A stretch of DNA of 64,000 nt from Escherichia coli (GCF_024223415.1 NZ_CP100500.1); one strand, 5' to 3'. Numbered from the stretch's first letter, positions 11,645 to 37,580 are shown. The notes: generated from the letters alone by a model not told the origin. A program made the numbers and translations.

Positions 11645-14600
11645 CTAATCTCTGTCACGGAAACTACCGACTGTCTGGCGGATACGGCGTTCCATTTCCG
11701 CACGGACGGCATCACCCACCATTTTTGCCAGTTCGCGCGGGTTTTGCGTGTGAACATCATGCAGGTGAATATGCAGTTCGCCAGTTAATCCCCATGGTGC
11801 CGCCTCACTCTGGCGCGGTCGGGGCGATGCGGGGGATATGGGCTGGCGCACAGCCTCAACCACCGGACGGGATGTTGCCGCCATCACTGGTGTCATTAGC
11901 GGGGAGAACGTCGGCATGACATCGTGAGTCATAACCGGTTTGATCACCGGCGGAACCACTGGCGTAATATTACCGGACAGTACCGGACGGACGACCGGAG
12001 GAATAACCGGCACATTATTCACGGACACCACCGGCTTCACGACCGGCGACACGTTCGCCGTGGTGGATATCAGCGGCGAAACACTGACAGGCGGTGGCGC
12101 TGGCAGCGGTGGCAACGAAGGCACACTGACCGACGGCACCTGCGGCAGTCTGACAGGTGGCTCACTGACACTACCCGGTAACAGGGAAGCTGCGCGGTTA
12201 AAGCGTTCCTCCTTCCACTCACCACGAACGGCCAGCGCTTCCGGCAGGTTTTTAAAGATAATATCGCCGGGACCAGCGCGTTTTTTCGCCTGTTTCGCCT
12301 CATCCAGCAGACCACCGGTGTTATCGACGATTTTGTTCAGGCGGCGCATAGTGCCGGTATTCTCCCCCGTCAGGGGTGGTTGCCCCCCTTTGGGTTTTTC
12401 GCCGTATTTTTTATCCTCGTCCTTTTTCGGCGGATTAATGACGTTAACATCCGCCAGAAGCATGGCAGCTTTCTCGTTCAGCAACTCCTTCTGTTTTAGT
12501 TCTTCCGCTTTTTTCCGGGCGCGCTCAACCGCTGACGGAATCAGCCCGAGTTTTTCCAGCACCCGGGTTAATGAGTCAATCAGCAGCGTAACCGGACCGG
12601 TCACCAGATTGCTGATAAACTCCCCGACCTTCTGCCCGAACGTCCGCCCGGCTTCCGTGCACTTGTCCAGCTCATCCTTTGTTGTGCTTACCGGCGCGAA
12701 CAAATCCACGAACCACTGCCACACACGCCCGATTGTCTGCCCGACATACTCAAACAATGGTCCCAGTGGTGCCACAGCCTCGCGCAGTGGCGTAAGCCCC
12801 TGCCACAGGCCGGACAAGAACCCGCCCACGACAGCCTTCAGCTGGTCCCAGTGCCGCCAGATAAGCACTGCCGCACCGACCAGTGTCGCCACCACAAGGC
12901 CCACCGGACTTAACAGAAAACCCAGCGCCCCGCCAAGTGCGCCCACCGCACCACTCACCATCCCCCACAGTGCGGGCAGACCTGACAGTCTGAGCGCCAG
13001 TATTCCGATACCGCGCCCCAGTGAAATCAGTGCGCCGCCAGGTGAAGTGAACGCAGCCAGCAGACCACCACGCAGCGCGCCAAGTCCCGCCTGCACACCA
13101 CGAAGCCGCCCCGCAACTACGCCCAGCAGTGCAGCAAACCGTCCGGCACCGGAGGTGATACCGACAAACAGCACGCGCCAGCCACCGATACCGCCCAGCG
13201 GACCACCGAGTACGCCGCGCAGCTGCGTCAGTAACGGCAGCGCACGACCGAGGCCGGATGTGCCGGTCAGCAGGGCAAACCCAAGACGCAGTTTTGCCAG
13301 CGGCCCCATCAACACACCAGTGGCAAGTGACAGCGCCCCCATGGCCGCAACCGCAGCCAGCAGTACACCACCGGCAATCAGCAGTTGTTTTGTCAGTTCA
13401 GGGTGCGCCTGAGCCAGCGCGGTGACTTTCGCAATAACCCGGGTGAACGACTGCGTGACAGAACGCAGCGGCCCGTCAACGAGGTCAGCGATACGGATAC
13501 GCAGTCCTTCCCATGCGCTGTTCAGTGATTTCAGGTCACCGTCCAGGTTATCAACCATAACACGGGCAGTCTGATTAAGTTCCCCGGTGGCCAGTTCAAT
13601 CTCCTGCGTAAGACGGGGAAGATTATTTTCCCCCGCCGCAGTGACAAGATTCATCAGGGAAACATAGGACTCCTGCCCGGCAATAGCCCTGAAAAAGGAG
13701 ACCTGCGCGGCATTACCGTATTTTCGGGTGGCCTGGTACAGCTCATTCAGGATATTTTCCATCCGGCGCATGTTCCCGTAAGCATCCTGCGTCTCCACGC
13801 CAAGCTCTTTCAGTGCCATTGCAGCGGCCTTCGGCGGATCAACCAGACGTGACAGACTGGCACGCAGCGCCGTACCTGCATCACTTCCACGGATCCCCAC
13901 ACTGCCAAGGACACCCGTCATGGCTGCCGCCTGTTCAAGGGACAGGCCAAGTGAAGCTGCAACCGGCCCCGTGTACTTCATGGTTTCACCCAGCGAACGG
14001 AGATCCGTATTGGTTCGTGTGAAGGTGGCGGCCAGCGTGTCACCCACGCGATCCATCTGGTCAGCGGACAGACCAAACTGTGTGAGGATATTCGAACTGA
14101 TATCGGCAGTCTGTCCCAGGTCCATCCCTGCAGCCATTGCCAGATCAAGCACGCCGGGTAGCGCCGCCTGTATGGCCTGTGGTGTGAAGCTGGCCATGGC
14201 AAGGAACGCCTGACCGCTGGCAGCATCACCGGCGGTAAACTGCGTTTCAGAGCCCAGCTTAATGGCCTGTTCGCGCAGCGCCTTAAACTGCGGACTGTTT
14301 TTGTCAATACGGGTCAGCGCCTGGACGCGCGACATCTCCTTACCAAAACTGACCGCCGGTTGCAGGAAACGTCCGGCCGCATAGCCGCCTGCCGCCGCCG
14401 TACCAACCGCCGTAAGTCCGACCGTTTTAAGTTTTCCCGCCGTCTCCTGAGCACGGGAATATTGCTGGCGTGCCTGCGTGACACGTGCCAGCGCCTGCCG
14501 TTCGCGTTCCAGCTGGTCGTTGTATTGCTGTGTTCGCCGTATGGCCTGTTGAATGGTGTTGTCACTGCCGGAAAGCGCAATACCGTGGCGCCGCAGCTCA

Positions 14601-14956
14601 CCACCCAGTTCGCGCATTCGCTGAACTTCACGCGCACGGACCTCATTGAGACGCTCAAGTTTGAGGCTCAAATCGTTCATCAGCTTTTTCTGTTTGTCAG
14701 ACAGCACGGTTCCGGCGCGCTGAATTTGCTGAAGTGCGCTTAACTGGCGTTGCGCCCTGACAATGCCGTTTCCGGCCTTGTTTGCAGCCTCGCGGGCGCG
14801 ATCAAATGAACGGGCGTGGCGTTCCAGGTTTTTGATCGCACCCTGCGTTCTCTGTATGGAGTCGCCAAGCTGGCCCATCATGCGACGGGCGTTTTCGGTG
14901 GGACGGGTCAGCCTGTCAACAGCGCTGAAGGCGACCCGTATATCAAGCGTTTTCAT
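11645..14956 (-). CDS. T: tail tape measure protein, P2 gpT family
   Basis: About 1100 aa: coiled-coil N-terminus, central Gly/Ala-rich TM-like region and a P/V-rich C-terminal repeat region. The ATG at 14956 overlaps the E' stop as in P2; the ORF-track GTG at 14992 is less likely. Confidence 0.85.
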   Translation of the reverse strand: MKTLDIRVAFSAVDRLTRPTENARRMMGQLGDSIQRTQGAIKNLERHARSFDRAREAANKAGNGIVRAQRQLSALQQIQRAGTVLSDKQKKLMNDLSLKLERLNEVRAREVQRMRELGGELRRHGIALSGSDNTIQQAIRRTQQYNDQLERERQALARVTQARQQYSRAQETAGKLKTVGLTAVGTAAAGGYAAGRFLQPAVSFGKEMSRVQALTRIDKNSPQFKALREQAIKLGSETQFTAGDAASGQAFLAMASFTPQAIQAALPGVLDLAMAAGMDLGQTADISSNILTQFGLSADQMDRVGDTLAATFTRTNTDLRSLGETMKYTGPVAASLGLSLEQAAAMTGVLGSVGIRGSDAGTALRASLSRLVDPPKAAAMALKELGVETQDAYGNMRRMENILNELYQATRKYGNAAQVSFFRAIAGQESYVSLMNLVTAAGENNLPRLTQEIELATGELNQTARVMVDNLDGDLKSLNSAWEGLRIRIADLVDGPLRSVTQSFTRVIAKVTALAQAHPELTKQLLIAGGVLLAAVAAMGALSLATGVLMGPLAKLRLGFALLTGTSGLGRALPLLTQLRGVLGGPLGGIGGWRVLFVGITSGAGRFAALLGVVAGRLRGVQAGLGALRGGLLAAFTSPGGALISLGRGIGILALRLSGLPALWGMVSGAVGALGGALGFLLSPVGLVVATLVGAAVLIWRHWDQLKAVVGGFLSGLWQGLTPLREAVAPLGPLFEYVGQTIGRVWQWFVDLFAPVSTTKDELDKCTEAGRTFGQKVGEFISNLVTGPVTLLIDSLTRVLEKLGLIPSAVERARKKAEELKQKELLNEKAAMLLADVNVINPPKKDEDKKYGEKPKGGQPPLTGENTGTMRRLNKIVDNTGGLLDEAKQAKKRAGPGDIIFKNLPEALAVRGEWKEERFNRAASLLPGSVSEPPVRLPQVPSVSVPSLPPLPAPPPVSVSPLISTTANVSPVVKPVVSVNNVPVIPPVVRPVLSGNITPVVPPVIKPVMTHDVMPTFSPLMTPVMAATSRPVVEAVRQPISPASPRPRQSEAAPWGLTGELHIHLHDVHTQNPRELAKMVGDAVRAEMERRIRQTVGSFRDRD

Positions 14957-15469
14957 GCTCTGCGTTCCCGCTGCGAAGGGCCGCCCGCTCACGCCAGGCG
15001 ACCACCTCGCCGGGATCCATCAGGAAGATTTCAGCGGGAGACCAGTTGAAAATAACGGCGATATCCGCCACAAAGTCTTCAATGTGCTCAAAGGGCACGA
15101 CGGTTATCAGCCTGCCGTCGCCGCCCCGCTCTTCCCGCCAGAGTCCTGACCGGCCAAAAAATTAACCGCCACCCCGCACAGCTGAATAAAATCAGCGGAC
15201 CCCATGCGCTTAAGCAGAACCTCGTCCAGTCGCGGCGAAGTGACGCGCGGGAGTAACTCAAACATCGCGTCCGTTTTCATGTTCAGCACGTCAAGCAGTG
15301 ACAGCCCGCGCAGTGAACCGGCCTGCTGTACAGCAGGCGTGATTTCCACATACGTGATTTTTTTGTTACCGAGCACAAGGGGCGTTTTCAGCGTCACGCC
15401 GCGCTCACTGGTCACGTCCGCCGCATCAGCACCGTCAGTAACAGGGGCAACAACCGGATTTTCTTTCAT
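14943..15469 (-). CDS. E': tail assembly chaperone E+E' (programmed -1 frameshift product)
   Basis: After the slippery TTTTTTG the -1 frame stays open to the TGA at 14943-14945. It encodes ...PFEHIEDFVADIAVIFNWSPAEIFLMDPGEVVAWRERAALRSG..., the usual E' tail. Confidence 0.75.
15107..15469 (-). CDS. E: tail assembly chaperone, P2 gpE family
   Basis: GAGG SD. LRGLSLLDVLNMKTDAMFELLPRVTSP resembles P2 gpE (LRGVSLAAVANSEVDALIKVLPRMTAP). Confidence 0.85.
   Translation of the reverse strand: MKENPVVAPVTDGADAADVTSERGVTLKTPLVLGNKKITYVEITPAVQQAGSLRGLSLLDVLNMKTDAMFELLPRVTSPRLDEVLLKRMGSADFIQLCGVAVNFLAGQDSGGKSGAATAG
15155..15161 (-). other. -1 ribosomal frameshift slippery heptamer T TTT TTG
   Basis: Plus strand reads CAAAAAA, which is TTTTTTG on the coding strand near the end of gpE. 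This is the same heptamer as the P2 E/E' site. Confidence 0.75.
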
Positions 15470-18617: not shown

Positions 18618-18869
18618 ATGTTCCGTTGTCCCCTATGCGGTGCATCCGCACGTATCCGCACCAGTCGCAATGAAAATGATTCAGGCACAGTTCGCCTGAA
18701 GTACTACCAGTGCAATAACCTCGAATGCGGGATCGGCTTTACCACACTGGAGGGTTTTAACAAATTCACATCAAAACGCGCCCCGTCGCCGCAGGGTACA
18801 GAGCGGATACCGTGGGAAGATTTTCCGGGATCTCACAGGGGGAATACTCAGATTAATCTTGATATTTAA
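18618..18869 (+). CDS. ogr: late gene transcription activator, Ogr/Delta zinc-finger family
   Basis: MFRCPLCGASARIRTSR...YYQCNNLECGIGFTTLE matches P2 Ogr (MFHCPLCQHAAHARTSR...YHQCQNVNCSATFITYE) with the CxxC...CxxxxC arrangement. Confidence 0.9.
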   Translation: MFRCPLCGASARIRTSRNENDSGTVRLKYYQCNNLECGIGFTTLEGFNKFTSKRAPSPQGTERIPWEDFPGSHRGNTQINLDI

Positions 18870-18918
18870 GAACAATAATCAGGTTGAGAGGACATCATAA
18901 GGCAAGTAGATTAACGGC

Positions 18919-19013
18919 AGATACTTTCCCGCAACCACGGGCAAGTATTTAATTATCCATGATGAAATATGACCTAAATTGTTTTTTGCCCGCCGGAAAG
19001 CGGGCATTTTTTT
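18919..19013 (+). ncRNA. predicted sRNA, A-type copy A0 (directly after ogr)
   Basis: Promoter TTGAGA (18884-18889), 17-bp spacer, TAGATT (18907-18912). Internal hairpin CCCG-caacca-CGGG. Terminator GCCCGC-cggaaa-GCGGGC (18988-19005) followed by a T-run. The 5' end is estimated. Confidence 0.45.
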
Positions 19014-19227
19014 ATTCTTTTGTGGTTATGGGGTCATCAGGAACCACGTGCAGATTATATTTTTGTTTTTTTGGCGTTCCTCCGGCAGCAACGAGTTCAT
19101 CAATAAGACACTGACACGCCTGAACATCCCGGGCATGTCTTAGTTTCACCTTTATTGATTTAACCTTATCCTCACCGGAGGAGAAATGCAGTTCAATCTC
19201 AATATCGTTTCTTCGGAACAATCTCAT
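19012..19227 (-). CDS. hypothetical small protein R1 (71 aa), the only intact copy of a triplicated ORF
   Basis: MRLFRRNDIEIELHFSSGEDKVK.... The start with an SD is conserved in the two decayed copies (AGGAGG in copy 2). The stop abuts the bidirectional terminator. No family recognised. Confidence 0.4.
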   Translation of the reverse strand: MRLFRRNDIEIELHFSSGEDKVKSIKVKLRHARDVQACQCLIDELVAAGGTPKKQKYNLHVVPDDPITTKE

Positions 19228-19321
19228 ACGCCCCCTGAATATATCAGAAATACTAGTATCGAAAAATGAGAAAACAGTTAGACAGGAGAAACATATTAAC
19301 ACAAATCATTTATACCTATAG

Positions 19322-19339
19322 ATGAAATTATAATTTCAT
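19322..19339. promoter_or_regulatory. perfect 18-bp palindrome ATGAAATTATAATTTCAT between divergent R1 and B1
   Basis: Read directly from the sequence. Degenerate versions sit at the same place in unit 2 (~20497) and unit 3 (~21143). Confidence 0.4.
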
Positions 19340-19371
19340 TCATGAATATGATAGATAACTATATTGTGAAC

Positions 19372-19478
19372 AAAATGAAAAATGGCTAAATTAAAAATGG
19401 GCATGGAGGAATGCCCGGTTATCAATATAATGTGACGTAGATCATTGTTTTGCCCGCCGGAGAGCGGGCATTTTTTTT
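19372..19478 (+). ncRNA. predicted sRNA, B-type copy B1
   Basis: -10 TATATT at 19360-19365. Hairpin GGGCAT-ggagga-ATGCCC. Terminator hairpin 19452-19469 followed by T8. Ends are estimated. Confidence 0.35.
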
Positions 19479-19582
19479 GCGCCTGCCATCGAGGCGCCTT
19501 CCCTGGCGCACACAAAGCAGCCCTGATTTTCCATGAAAACTTCAGGGTTGAGCTGCGGGCACAAAGTGAGTAGATTAGCTAC

Positions 19583-19679
19583 GGGTACCTCCCCCTGACA
19601 ACAGGAAGGGTGTCCATTATCCATGATATACAAACGAAAAGTCTTGTTTTTTGCCCGCCGAAGCGCGGGCATTTTTTTA
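19583..19679 (+). ncRNA. predicted sRNA, A-type copy A1 (immediately upstream of hok locus 1)
   Basis: TTGAGC (19548-19553), 17-bp spacer, TAGATT (19571-19576). 5' hairpin around CCUGACAACAGG. Terminator 19653-19670 followed by T7. Confidence 0.45.
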
Positions 19680-19723
19680 TGCATCAGACAAGATACAGCC
19701 CACCCCAACTGACACCTGAAATA

Positions 19724-19752
19724 TTGCCGCAACAAAAAGAAACAGTTAAATT
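19724..19752 (+). promoter_or_regulatory. candidate hok/mok mRNA promoter
   Basis: TTGCCG (19724-19729), 16/17-bp spacer, TTAAAT/TAAATT (19746-19752). The predicted start coincides with GGGUGCCUU (19759-19767), which is complementary to a 3' element (20102-20110). Confidence 0.5.
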
Positions 19753-19794
19753 ACGCGCGGGTGCCTTTCGGCTGATGGCCGGAGGGAAAACCTG

Positions 19795-19864
19795 AAGGCC
19801 GGATGTGGAAAGGCCCCGGAAAACATTTCTGTTTAACCGAGGCCCTAACCGCATTACCTTGACA
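19795..19864 (-). ncRNA. sok: candidate Sok-like antisense RNA (ends approximate)
   Basis: Minus-strand promoter TTGCTC (19899-19894), 17-bp spacer, TAACCT (19876-19871), overlapping the hok SD. The transcript would cover the mok start at 19805, as in R1 hok/sok. No terminator could be resolved. Confidence 0.35.
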
Positions 19865-20038
19865 AGTGAAAGGTTAGCGCCTCTCCGGAAAAGGAGCAAG
19901 TGCTATGTCGCAAAAATCGCTTACGGCCATCACGTTCTGCGTGACGGCAATCCTCATCATCTGGATATTGCACGGTTCGCTGTGCGAAATACGGATGAGC
20001 TTCTGGGGAGCGGAGTTTGCGGCGTTCTTACAATGTAA
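19805..20038 (+). CDS. mok: mok-like overlapping reading frame
   Basis: 77-codon ORF with a GAAGG SD. It starts 100 nt upstream of hok and overlaps almost all of it in another frame, which is the hok/mok architecture. Confidence 0.5.
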   Translation: MERPRKTFLFNRGPNRITLTSERLAPLRKRSKCYVAKIAYGHHVLRDGNPHHLDIARFAVRNTDELLGSGVCGVLTM

Positions 20039-20045
20039 GAAGTAA
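19905..20045 (+). CDS. hok: Hok/Gef-family type I toxin (46 aa)
   Basis: AAGGAG SD. MSQKSLTAITFCVTAILIIWILHGSLCEIRMSFWGAEFAAFLQCKK has one TM plus the SLCE...AAF motif of Hok proteins; closest by memory to HokA. Confidence 0.8.
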   Translation: MSQKSLTAITFCVTAILIIWILHGSLCEIRMSFWGAEFAAFLQCKK

Positions 20046-20134
20046 GGAAACCGCGACGGGGGAGCAATCCCCCGTCAATCGGTTGCCAGGGTAAGGTCGA
20101 TAAGGCACCCTATCTCACAGACATGAACAAACAA

Positions 20135-20167
20135 ACCCGCAGCATAAAAACTGCGGGTTTTCTTTTT
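20135..20167 (+). terminator. intrinsic terminator of hok locus 1
   Basis: ACCCGCAG-cataaaaa-CTGCGGGT followed by TTTTCTTTTT. Confidence 0.7.
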
Positions 20168-20298
20168 GGTGTCCTCACCGACTTGAAACAGTGATCAGAC
20201 TATAAGACAAAGCCCGCAATGTTGCGGGCTTACTCTACCTCTCGAAAATGTGGTCACTGCGTGGACATACGCTGATACAAATCCTTTATATCAATAAA

Positions 20299-20397
20299 TT
20301 AAATCTTTGTTTTTTTCATCAACAATGATTTAACCTTATCCTCACCGGAGGAGAAATGCAGTTCAATCTCAATATCGTTTCTGTGGAACAGCCTCAT
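20299..20397 (-). pseudogene. truncated copy R2 of the small ORF (32 codons)
   Basis: MRLFHRNDIEIELHFSSGEDKVKS is identical in pattern to R1; it then diverges and stops. An AGGAGG SD is retained. Confidence 0.4.
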
Positions 20398-20544
20398 AAG
20401 ACAACCTCCTGAATTCATCAGAAACACAGTCAACTGAAAACCAGAAAGCAGACAAACAGTGGACACACATTAATACAAATCATTTATACCTATAGATGAA
20501 ATTGCAGTTTCATCTATAACATGACAGGTAACAATATTGTGAAA

Positions 20545-20651
20545 AAACTCAAAACTCGTTAGATTAAAGACGGACAGAGCAATGCTACTTTATCAATAAC
20601 ATGTAACCTGTACTTCCTTATTTTGCCCGCCGAAGCACGGGCATTTTTTTT
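20545..20651 (+). ncRNA. predicted sRNA, B-type copy B2 (divergent body)
   Basis: -10 AATATT near 20533. Terminator 20625-20642 followed by T8. The body differs from B1/B3. Confidence 0.3.
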
Positions 20652-20755
20652 GCGCCTGCCATCGAGGCGCCTTCCCTGGCGCACACAAAGCAGCCCTGAT
20701 TTTCCATGAAAACTTCAGGGTTGAGCCAAAAGCACAAAGACAGTAGATTAACCAC

Positions 20756-20849
20756 GGGTGCCTTCCACCTGACAACAGGAAGGGTGTCCAGTATCAATGA
20801 CAGACAACTCACATTGCTGTTTTGCCCGCCGGAAAGCGGGCATTTTTTT
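20756..20849 (+). ncRNA. predicted sRNA, A-type copy A2
   Basis: TTGAGC (20721-20726), 17-bp spacer, TAGATT (20744-20749). Hairpin CCTTCC-acctgacaaca-GGAAGG. Terminator 20824-20841 followed by T7. Confidence 0.45.
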
Positions 20850-20981
20850 ATTCTTTTGTGGTTATTGGGTCATCAGGAACAACATGCAGATTATGCTTTG
20901 ATTTTTTTGGTGTTATTACAGCAGCAACGAGTTTATTAATAAGACACTGACATGCCTGAACATCCCTGACATATCATAATA

Positions 20982-21053
20982 TCACTTTATTTTTTTAGCT
21001 TGTCCTTTCTGGAGCAGAAATATCTCAACATCGTTTCTGTGGAACAACCTCAT
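20982..21053 (-). pseudogene. decayed copy R3 of the small ORF (stop after 23 codons, internal deletions)
   Basis: MRLFHRNDVEIFLLQKGQAKKIK*. Flanking DNA is still alignable by eye to the R1 gene. Confidence 0.35.
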
Positions 21054-21192
21054 TTGCCCTTGAATGTATCATAAATATCAGCATCGGAAAACCAACAGCA
21101 ATACAGAAGAAACATGTTAATGCAAATCACTTATACCTATAGATGAAATTACAGTTTTGTTCATAAATATGATAAGTAACTATATTGTGAAT

Positions 21193-21300
21193 AAAATGAA
21201 AACTAGCTAAATTAAACGTGGGCATGGTGGAATGCCTCGTAATCAATAATACATGATCCGTACTTCCTTGTTTTGCCCGCCGGAAAGCGGGCATTTTTTT
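21193..21300 (+). ncRNA. predicted sRNA, B-type copy B3
   Basis: -10 TATATT at 21181-21186. Hairpin GGGCAT-ggtgga-ATGCC. Terminator 21275-21292 followed by T7. Confidence 0.35.
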
Positions 21301-21404
21301 GGCGGTTACCATCGCCTCACCTTCCTGGTTCACATGAAGCAACCCTGATTTTCCATGAAAACTTCAGGGTTGAGACAAAAGCACAAAGACAGTAGATTAA
21401 CCAC

Positions 21405-21497
21405 GGGTACCTTCCACCTGACAACAGGAAGGCTGTCCAGTATCAATGACAGACAACTCACATTGCTGTTTTGCCCGCCGGAAAGCGGGCTTTTTTT
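21405..21497 (+). ncRNA. predicted sRNA, A-type copy A3
   Basis: TTGAGA (21370-21375), 17-bp spacer, TAGATT (21393-21398). Terminator 21473-21490 followed by T7. Confidence 0.45.
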
Positions 21498-21601
21498 GGC
21501 AGTTATCATAGCCGCACCTTCCTGGCACATATGAAGCAACCCTGATTTTCCATGAAAACTTCAGGGTTGAGACAAAAGCACAAAAACAGTAGATTAACCA
21601 C

Positions 21602-21699
21602 GGGTGCCTGCCACCTGACAACAGGAAGGGTGTCCATTATCCATGATATACAAACGAAAAGTCTTGTCTTTTGCCCGCCAAAGCGCGGGCATTTTTTTA
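21602..21699 (+). ncRNA. predicted sRNA, A-type copy A4 (immediately upstream of hok locus 2)
   Basis: TTGAGA (21567-21572), 17-bp spacer, TAGATT (21590-21595). The 3' half is identical in pattern to A1. Terminator 21673-21690 followed by T7. Confidence 0.45.
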
Positions 21700-21909
21700 T
21701 GCATCAGACAAGATACAGCCCACCCCAACTGACACCTGAAATATTGCCGCAACAAAAAGAAACGGGTGCCTTTCGGCTGATGGCCGGAGGGAAAACCTGA
21801 AGGCCGGATGTGGAAAGGCCCCGGAAAACATCTGTGTTTAACCGAGGCCTGACCCTTCCTACCGTGACAAGTGGAAGGTTAGCGCCTCTTTGTAAAAGGA
21901 GCAAGCGCT

Positions 21910-22050
21910 ATACCGCAAAAAACGATTATTGTTGGCATTTTATGCCTGACAATAACCCTGGTCATCTGGATGGTCCACGATTCGTTATGTGAATTCAGCT
22001 TTGATATCTGGGGAGCGCGTTTTGCGGCGTTCTTGCAGTGTAAACCGTAA
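21910..22050 (+). pseudogene. hok: hok-family toxin gene with ATG>ATA start and deleted promoter
   Basis: (I)PQKTIIVGILCLTITLVIWMVHDSLCEFSFDIWGARFAAFLQCKP. The first codon is ATA where locus 1 has ATG. A 16-bp deletion removes the -10 element present in locus 1. Confidence 0.65.
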
Positions 22051-22200
22051 GAAACCGCAGCGGGGGAGAAATTCCCCGCTATCCGGTTGTTGGGGTGGGC
22101 CGATATGGCGCCCTTTCCCTGTAGAGACAAAACAAAAAACCAGATTTGCCCGCCATTGAGAGGGCTTTTTTGTCACCCTCACCAGTGAGGGCATCATCAT

Positions 22201-22422
22201 TCAGAGGCGCGTAAGCCACCCGGCGTTAACATCCTGCCTGTCAACCCTGGCCGCAGAGTCTGAACGGCAGGTACCGGAAGGAGTACCAAAAACATCCCTG
22301 ACAAGTTCCGCCACCTTCCCGATATCATCAGGTGTCACATTCCTCACCTCGGCAGTGATCCGTGGCGTACCATCATCGTTAACAAGAGTGGCTTTAAAGC
22401 TGGTGCGAAGGGAAAACAACAT
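22201..22422 (-). CDS. hypothetical small protein (~73 aa)
   Basis: GGGAGGGG SD upstream of clustered ATGs. No family recognised. Not part of the serS region as I remember K-12. Confidence 0.3.
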   Translation of the reverse strand: MLFSLRTSFKATLVNDDGTPRITAEVRNVTPDDIGKVAELVRDVFGTPSGTCRSDSAARVDRQDVNAGWLTRL

Positions 22423-22626
22423 CAACATCCCCTCCCTTTGGTTCGTTGCACTGACGGCACGACACCATCAGGAAAAAGAAAAGCCCACAACGTCAGTATT
22501 GTGGACTTTTTTCTTCAAAGATGGACATTATCTGGACACATGAAAATAAAATCCATTTATTTTCATATAGTTAAGTACCATGCAAAAGCGCCCGCAGGCG
22601 CTTTTTAGATTCAGAAAAATTAGGTA

Positions 22627-37492: not shown

Positions 37493-37580
37493 GGTGAGGT
37501 GTCCGAGTGGCTGAAGGAGCACGCCTGGAAAGTGTGTATACGGCAACGTATCGGGGGTTCGAATCCCCCCCTCACCGCCA
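37493..37580 (+). tRNA. serW: tRNA-Ser (anticodon GGA), 88 nt with a long variable arm and encoded CCA
   Basis: GGTGAGGTGTCCGAGTGGCTGAAGGAGCACGCCTGGAAAGTGTG...GGTTCGAATCCCCCCCTCACCGCCA. Its position after infA identifies it as serW rather than serX. Confidence 0.97.

Follow-up and report, generated by a model that had tools for sequence, protein, structure and literature searches.

Positions 19724-20167 of a 64,000-nucleotide stretch of an Escherichia coli genome (NZ_CP100500.1; hereafter the window, by which we mean the whole stretch) very probably hold a self-contained type I toxin-antitoxin cassette of the Hok/Sok type, present as a moron at the end near ogr of a P2-like (P88/Xuanwuvirus-type) prophage integrated in the serS terminator, and working by a mechanism that we infer from RNA folding models and from analogy with the hok/mok/sok (parB) locus of plasmid R1. 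The locus is a genuine and apparently intact toxin plus antisense-RNA cassette and belongs to the ordinary cargo of P2-like prophages; both its kind and this particular member are already known, common, annotated and catalogued. The residual novelty lies in the absence of a canonical mok and in the RNA anatomy of the clade, so far undescribed. A preliminary description of this DNA, made from the sequence alone, had taken the locus for a chromosomal one adjoining a prophage end, in which all the canonical parts were readable and which, being intact, was noteworthy as rare; on these points our analysis led to a different picture.

A Hok-family peptide in a P2-like prophage

The toxin gene had been recognised in the preliminary description as an open reading frame (ORF) for a 46-amino-acid Hok-family peptide behind an AAGGAG Shine-Dalgarno (SD) sequence, and the family models bear this out: the peptide exceeds the cut-off of Pfam PF01848 HOK_GEF (29 bits against 22, E 8.3e-7, with residues 7-44 covered) and scores 77.9 bits against PHROG_251. 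Its RefSeq entry is the Hok/Gef family protein WP_000078913.1, and the identical sequence occurs on at least 1000 contigs. In the alignment with the chromosomal and plasmid Hok peptides that the preliminary description had proposed, here HokA-E, Hok of R1 and the clade, the seven residues conserved family-wide (M1, C12, T14, L26, C27, E28 and E37) are all kept; the logo of the survey by Escalera-Maurer et al. (bioRxiv 10.1101/2025.08.07.668861) gives M1, C16, T18, L30, C31, E32 and E41 as the conserved ones. Together with these residues, the peptide has the single N-terminal hydrophobic helix of the Hok/Gef family. The closest of the K-12 peptides is HokA, with 41% identity, while R1 Hok, of 52 amino acids, is 28% identical. 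Identity with any of HokA-E was ruled out by the alignment and by the NCBIfam equivalog models, whose cut-offs were not reached (30.7 against 89 for HokA, NF007290; 21.3 against 73 for the Hok subfamily, NF007279), and a sequence search of the PDB gave no match. Among 23 distinct coding sequences, the ratio of non-synonymous to synonymous polymorphism (pN/pS) takes a value of 0.20 for the hok frame, compared with 1.3-1.4 for the two others, which indicates purifying selection on the gene of what is, judging from its sequence, a Hok-family membrane peptide.

The clade of the peptide corresponds to cluster 72 of the same survey, a cluster of high abundance. The window peptide differs from the tested peptide 72_1621 by I21M and K46Q (96% identity); 42 of the 45 constructs of the survey were toxic, and the three non-toxic ones came from clusters other than 72. 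By contrast with the present analysis, the survey considered the coding sequence only, by its own statement without Mok, Sok and mRNA structure, and left the position between ogr and att undescribed.

Of 5426 complete E. coli genomes, 1660 (31%) contain the cassette at a coverage of at least 80%, with up to 8 copies per genome; 2514 of the 2531 places are chromosomal, and the feature beneath every full-length match listed has a Hok/Gef annotation. An intact locus of this type, annotated in so many genomes and two residues away from a peptide already scored as toxic, is therefore not the rarity that had been supposed. Beyond E. coli, a scan of contigs revealed the cassette in E. albertii, Salmonella and Citrobacter; the scan gave 7 loci only, three of them on probably contaminant contigs with non-enterobacterial labels. 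A PADLOC search with the locus gave no match, and PADLOC has no model for the cassette; neither the peptide nor a hok of P2-like prophages turned up in full-text literature searches.

As regards the genomic setting, the window is chromosomal DNA of E. coli and, as far as ogr (18618-18869), is taken up by the P2-like prophage, whose integrase is located beside dmsA, outside the window; collinearity with K-12 resumes at 22584, and the island occupies the interval between dmsA and serS. The 15-nucleotide att core in the serS terminator is common to the junction on the int side; therefore, both the intact hok and a decayed second copy 2 kb downstream (Table 1) lie within the att-bounded prophage island, and the locus is not a core-chromosome hok next to a prophage end, as had been proposed. 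In fact, the cassette, from the -35 hexamer to the terminator, is 90-95% identical in the records of the P2-like phages P88, Chuche, PhiR44_2, P884B11, 500465-2 and Shae_phiSM. The gene order in Chuche is gpD, ogr, hok, com, methyltransferase and integrase; in P88, hok follows a tail protein (gpD-type) gene near the end of the record, in which no ogr is annotated. Relatives are encoded on 291 IMG/VR contigs, where prophage calls of ~35 kb very often end with hok. In four sampled genomes the ogr-hok pair adjoins ihfA, serS, a tRNA cluster and flk, that is, four integration sites, and in MB1159, a strain of sequence type 131, the same att site lacks a repeat array and shows ogr, hok, a 110-bp arm (P' arm), the core and serS in this order. 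The cassette thus has what is expected of a moron of P2-like phages: a position between ogr and attP in phage genomes, several integration sites, and a promoter and terminator of its own.

Shiga toxin (Stx) phages carry an 81%-identical copy just downstream of lom; in 933W (AF125520, 45499-45865) it encodes MSQKSLITVTICMTVIFTIWMLHGSLCEFRLNLWGAEFAAFLQCKQ (beginning MSQKSLITVTICMTV), is unannotated in that record, and its peptide is identical to the tested construct 72_1589 of the survey. The Stx-phage copy is a locus separate from hokW-sokW of the Stx2 prophage Sp5 (Takada et al. 2021, PMC8621323), which is also a prophage-borne hok/sok and shares with our cassette the PHROG label 'MokW-like host killing'. 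HokW, however, is a distinct peptide of 51 amino acids that begins MKQQKAM and has a different leader (PMC8621323); its identity with the window peptide is 28%, a value that is indicative only, the middle of the HokW query having been reconstructed. Moreover, the primer published for the hokW leader has no match in the part of 933W where the cassette homologue lies, and identity with hokW-sokW was rejected.

Folding of the mRNA and the predicted switch and antisense RNA

The elements of the cassette are collected in Table 1. Their order is that of R1 hok/mok/sok: a weak promoter, tac, ucb, the GAGG target hairpin, dcb, a strong hok SD, the Hok ORF, the 3' stem-loop, fbi and the terminator, with a predicted antisense promoter whose -35 hexamer abuts the hok SD. 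By contrast with R1, the window cassette is phage- and not plasmid-borne, has a leader shorter by ~27 nucleotides, lacks a mok ATG after the GAGG, and gives an Rfam sok match below the gathering score. With respect to the K-12 loci, the tac/fbi cores GGGUGCC and GGCACCC match those of hokB; on the other hand, IS150 or IS186 flanks or interrupts hokA, hokC and hokE, whereas the window copy is uninterrupted and prophage-borne.

To describe the RNA we used an alignment of 36 distinct homologues, 72-100% identical and closely related to each other, to which the conservation values below refer. The predicted transcript 19759-20167 (409 nucleotides) folds at -181.2 kcal/mol, compared with -129.6 +/- 5.8 for dinucleotide shuffles (z -8.95), and in the minimum-energy fold the first 15 nucleotides are closed onto 20095-20110. 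The tac/fbi-like complementarity noted in the preliminary description, with GGGTGCCTT (19759-19767) as the perfect 9-nucleotide complement of AAGGCACCC (20102-20110), is therefore the closing helix of the full-length fold. This helix comprises 15 pairs and is 97.3% paired among the homologues, where 7 pairs have one-sided changes and a single pair a two-sided one, so the 5'-3' pairing, whose lack of conservation would have spoken against the locus, is kept. For the fold as a whole, 93% of the cells of the alignment are paired, compared with ~42% when the partners are slid, and 20 pairs carry a double change, compared with 9.6 +/- 1.9 for shuffles. The 9-bp hairpin at 20055-20076, already pointed out, is 99% paired, with 3 compensatory pairs; its positional counterpart in R1 is the terminal stem of Tr-hok (PMC9841398). 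The terminator, placed at 20135-20167 in the preliminary description, was found at 20133-20160 and its T-run. Homologues elsewhere carry other terminators after fbi; therefore, the conserved module runs from the -35 hexamer to just beyond fbi.

At the 5' side of the transcript, the -10 column of the homologues reads TAGATT, TAAATT or TAGAAT, also in those with a different upstream flank. Thus, of the hok promoter first proposed, TTGCCG is retained and TTAAAT (19746-19751) is present, but the homologues align better on TAAATT, one base downstream. A motif of the Ogr-type late promoter (TGT-N12-ACA) upstream of hok was also considered: a match with one mismatch was seen by eye near -70, in a flank not common to the other copies, and the candidate was dropped.

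Folding of the full-length and of the 3'-processed mRNA, proposed in the preliminary description, gave the 5'-3' closure in the first case and a change to tac/ucb pairing on truncation, as in the switch described for R1 (PMC9841398). In the full-length fold, the CUCC of the dcb element pairs with the GGAG of the hok SD. In the folds of the 3'-truncated RNAs 19759-20080 and 19759-19910, instead, tac/ucb and a helix of GAGGC (19839-19843) with GCCUC (19879-19883) form, and the hok SD is mostly unpaired. The tac/ucb pairing is nearly invariant (99.3% paired) and the GAGGC/GCCUC helix is 100% paired and mostly invariant, whereas compensatory changes are found in the inner stem of the target hairpin. 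Within this hairpin, the GAGG at 19839-19842 is homologous to the SD of R1 mok, according to an alignment with R1, hokB and hokC. The models thus indicate that the 5' end of the mRNA has two alternative partners, fbi on the 3' side and ucb as an internal box.

On the opposite strand, the antisense promoter reported in the preliminary description is supported in its two hexamers, 17 bp apart and placed like those of K-12 sokB, sokC and sokE; in the homologues AGGTTA is invariant and GAGCAA nearly invariant. Its RNA, which in that description would cover the start of mok, is predicted to end at ~19808 and barely reaches the GTG start proposed for that frame. The predicted Sok start lies ~41 nucleotides upstream of the hok ATG, compared with 44-49 for the annotated sokE, sokB and sokC of K-12. 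The predicted RNA folds at -31.1 kcal/mol (z -3.9), and in the consensus fold of 19 distinct homologues its 10-bp stem is kept, being invariant or compensated, and a U-G pair takes the place of the C.A mismatch of the sense strand. In the antisense of 19800-19867 and its homologues, the hairpin is invariant, and variation within the cassette is highest in the 5' tail past its first 5 nucleotides. These features suggest a conserved gene for an antisense hairpin RNA with conserved promoter hexamers. In local searches, Rfam RF01794 (sok) was matched by the two copies of the window with E-values from 4e-9 to 2e-8, and on this comparison the locus is a sok relative that the curated Rfam threshold overlooks; the matching RefSeq record has no annotated sok RNA.

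Taking the R1 switch as template (PMC9841398), the full-length mRNA would be locked by tac/fbi, with ucb holding the GAGG box and CUCC holding the hok SD. Slow 3' trimming up to the hairpin at 20055-20076 would take away fbi, after which tac would pair with ucb and GAGGC with the GCCUC of dcb, leaving the hok SD free. A constitutive Sok-like RNA of ~57 nucleotides would pair with 19808-19867, blocking the switch and triggering cleavage of the duplex, and only cells that cease to make Sok, because the prophage is lost or transcription is shut off, would produce Hok and depolarise. The inert full-length mRNA, its activation by 3' trimming and the neutralisation of the processed form by Sok are all presumed by analogy and from the folds.

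Table 1. Features of the cassette and of the neighbouring island, with coordinates counted from the first base of the window
Feature	Position	Strand	Description
hok promoter	19724-19752	+	-35 TTGCCG 19724-19729, 17-bp spacer, -10 TAAATT 19747-19752; transcript start inferred at ~19759
tac-like 5' end of hok mRNA	19759-19773	+	GGGUGCCUUUCGGCU; pairs with 20095-20110 in the full-length RNA and with 19808-19817 when 3'-truncated
Short leader ORF	19803-19862	+	ATG 19803 behind GAAGG, 19 codons, MWKGPGKHFCLTEALTALP, stop TGA 19860-19862
mok-like ORF of the preliminary description	19805-20038	+	GTG start, 77 codons
ucb-like box	19808-19817	+	GAAAGGCCCC; alternative partner of tac, 10 nucleotides, 90% complementary
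Predicted Sok-like antisense RNA	19808-19867	-	~55-60 nucleotides: 5' single-stranded tail (~19864-19845), hairpin (19844-19813), UUUCC tail
Sok-target hairpin	19812-19844	+	GGCCCCGG (19812-19819) paired with CCGAGGCC (19837-19844)
sok promoter	19871-19899	-	-35 TTGCTC (19899-19894), 17 bp, -10 TAACCT (19876-19871)
dcb/anti-SD element and hok SD	19877-19896	+	GCGCCUCUCC 19877-19886; AAGGAG 19891-19896, 8 nucleotides before ATG
hok coding sequence	19905-20045	+	46-codon ATG ORF, 46 amino acids, MSQKSLTAITFCVTAILIIWILHGSLCEIRMSFWGAEFAAFLQCKK; Pfam, PHROG, RefSeq
3' stem-loop	20055-20076	+	9-bp hairpin, presumed protective end of the processed mRNA
fbi-like element	20095-20110	+	GGUCGAUAAGGCACCC; full-length fold
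Intrinsic terminator of hok mRNA	20133-20167	+	hairpin 20133-20160 and T-run
Repeat unit of ~174 nucleotides	18875-19015, 19502-19675, 20675-20848, 21324-21497, 21521-21694		four or five copies
Decayed second hok/sok copy	21764-22141	+	~76-82% identical, 2 kb downstream; Rfam sok 48.1 bits
attR core, right boundary of the island	22584-22598	-	CCTGCGGGCGCTTTT in the serS terminator; 15-nucleotide core common to the int-side junction

The question of mok and the possible roles of the cassette

Several observations weigh against a working Hok/Sok cassette of this kind. The homologues are closely related, so that the covariation is modest, and the alternative helices mostly never vary, which is compatible with a switch and with overlapping constraints and is no proof of the former. 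A scan of the region with a promoter consensus found 0 sites, the hok promoter agreeing at 8 and the sok promoter at 6 of 12 consensus positions; the support for both therefore comes from conservation and positional homology and not from the quality of the hexamers. The match to Rfam RF01794 at 19759-19918 reaches 46.2 bits (E 4e-9 in a search of 701 bases), below the gathering score of 59. Moreover, the upstream flank of the window copy is atypical, with 850 bp from ogr compared with the usual ~190 bp. Finally, R1 needs a translation of mok that reaches the hok SD (PMC9841398) and, therefore, a locus without mok could be translationally silent.

Candidate roles for the cassette are prophage retention, exclusion of other phages and help in lysis; in the survey cited above, hok was found enriched in prophages and not near defence systems (bioRxiv 10.1101/2025.08.07.668861). 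The third role, with retention or exclusion coming second, would make the cassette mainly an aid to lysis and phage release on induction, like hokW-sokW, which raises the release of Sp5 after mitomycin C (PMC8621323). The position of the gene fits this idea, as most P2-like phages with hok have it on the strand of ogr, at 190 bp downstream and with no annotated feature in between, and the homology of the cassette begins ~9 bp from the ogr stop. HokW, on the other hand, is a different Hok with another leader, and in the window three terminators stand between ogr and the intact hok, so we consider a principal function in lysis rather unlikely, though it is the strongest of the alternatives.

The other alternatives depend on mok. 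The ORF previously described as mok-like is present in the window and overlaps hok, but it is not conserved and its start is not homologous to that of the canonical mok. In most close homologues, P88, Chuche and 933W included, the ORF from GTG 19805 is either interrupted or without a start codon; in most homologues, stops close the mok frame 16-43 nucleotides before the hok ATG, with no start codon beyond those stops. In R1, hokC and hokB the mok ATG lies 6-8 nucleotides past the GAGG, whereas at the homologous position the window reads CGCATTAC and the 933W type TCGTACC, with no ATG, GTG or TTG; K-12 hokE likewise has no ATG there. Other starts near the canonical site (ATT 19853, TTG 19859 and GTG 19866) were considered and none is conserved. 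Over the stretch that overlaps hok, pN/pS in the frame of the GTG ORF is 1.33, compared with 0.20 for hok, and indicates no constraint at the protein level. The claim that all the canonical parts are readable thus fails on the classical mok, which is missing.

What is found in the leader is a short ORF whose ATG, at 19803, is kept in 34 of the 36 homologues, being absent from the two most distant members. It has 8-24 codons in most of them and, in 7 of the 36, 61-79 codons that overlap hok. This leader ORF may be incidental, because the same bases form ucb and the 3' end of Sok.

A regulation of the canonical R1 type, in which the ORF from GTG 19805 is mok, is coupled to hok and has its start blocked by Sok, would be suggested by the requirement for mok translation in R1, by the open, hok-overlapping frame of the window and by the seven homologues with a long ORF in the mok frame, which begins at the conserved ATG two bases upstream. 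Nevertheless, the frame is closed in most close homologues, the GTG lies 45 nucleotides upstream of the homologous mok position, on the far side of the target hairpin, and the predicted Sok hardly extends to it, which makes this explanation improbable. To the same degree we doubt that the cassette is a silent hitch-hiker, structurally intact but with a Hok never translated after the loss of mok coupling and with no phenotype: the missing mok start, the similar condition of K-12 hokE (no mok start, no annotated mok and an IS186 insertion) and the decay of the second copy in the same island would agree with it, but purifying selection acts on the hok frame throughout the clade, conservation is higher in the non-coding switch elements than at synonymous sites, nearly a third of the genomes as well as records of phage genomes retain the cassette, and truncation leaves a strong AAGGAG exposed in the fold, at 8-nucleotide spacing and with no mok needed.

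We rather suggest that in this clade, unlike R1, the activation of hok is probably direct or passes through the short leader ORF, and that the classical mok is probably not needed for the hok SD to be exposed. A more detailed model, which we put forward only tentatively, is that the cluster-72 loci are mok-independent Hok/Sok systems, in which 3' processing alone would flip the leader and unmask the hok SD, Sok would block the flip instead of a mok start, variable tails would let several copies coexist without cross-talk, and the whole would serve as a device for prophage retention or exclusion.

The decayed second copy, the repeats and other features of the window

The second hok/sok copy shows several lesions: a deletion of 15 bp takes away exactly the hok -10, the start codon reads ATA instead of ATG, and fbi has mismatches. 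Since the two hexamers of the sok promoter are intact (21904-21899 and 21881-21876), this copy, which has no annotation in RefSeq, may represent an orphan antitoxin.

From ogr to serS, repeats form a mosaic of 3.7 kb. The ~174-nucleotide unit has the hok-like hexamers TTGAGC and TAGATT at a spacing of 17 bp, and a predicted RNA of ~95 nucleotides with a 5' hairpin and a strong terminator, which begins with GGGUGCCUU, the same 9 nucleotides as the 5' end of the hok mRNA. The unit was found, never annotated, in only 30 of the 5426 complete E. coli genomes, with 1-6 copies each; it matched nothing in Rfam or in the phage collection, and the genomes were too few for covariation analysis. It could be a small-RNA gene that arose from a hok leader, or what remains of prophage ends stacked on each other. 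A plus-strand terminator, TTTGCCCGCCGGAAAGCGGGCATTTTTTT, occurs in nine copies within 3.2 kb (18985-22184), and a 44-nucleotide AT-rich segment in five, at 19285, 20261, 20459, 21106 and 22532, the last of which adjoins the attR core. The stretch 20186-20331 matches the pre-integrase region of phage Chuche. An internal att core, which would have split the current prophage from older remnants, was searched for between the intact hok and serS, and none was found at up to 2 mismatches.

On the minus strand, 19012-19227 is an ORF of 71 amino acids (RefSeq hypothetical WP_001236182.1) that matches only the C-terminal part (72-127 of 128) of PHROG_14142, a family with no assigned function; degraded copies of it are located further right, at 20314-20398 and 20820-21059. 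An ORF of 75 amino acids at 22201-22428 (-), between the second copy and the attR arm, is unannotated in RefSeq and gave no match in PHROGs, NCBIfam and PADLOC. The ORF of the tail tape-measure protein (11645-14992, -) is intact, with 1115 amino acids, whereas the 100%-matching RefSeq record has a truncated pseudogene. Rfam also reported, unrelated to the cassette, an IS102 RNA (88 bits) at 49751-49947 (-) and a tRNA at 37493-37577 (+), a tRNA-Ser according to the RefSeq annotation of the matching record.

The value of these results is chiefly corrective: the locus is a catalogued and widespread phage-borne Hok/Sok cassette, and not an unusual intact chromosomal hok. Since its sok and leader fall below the RNA-family thresholds now in use, which overlook them, the annotation shows an orphan toxin gene without its antitoxin. 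The variable 5' tail of Sok would fit a diversified specificity of the antitoxin among the up to 8 copies of a genome. In P2-like phages hok is the gene nearest to att, a position in which an effect on retention, exclusion or lysis would be easily testable with P88 or Chuche, and this abundant clade, without a classical mok but with every element of the RNA switch, would be a natural test of mok coupling beyond R1.

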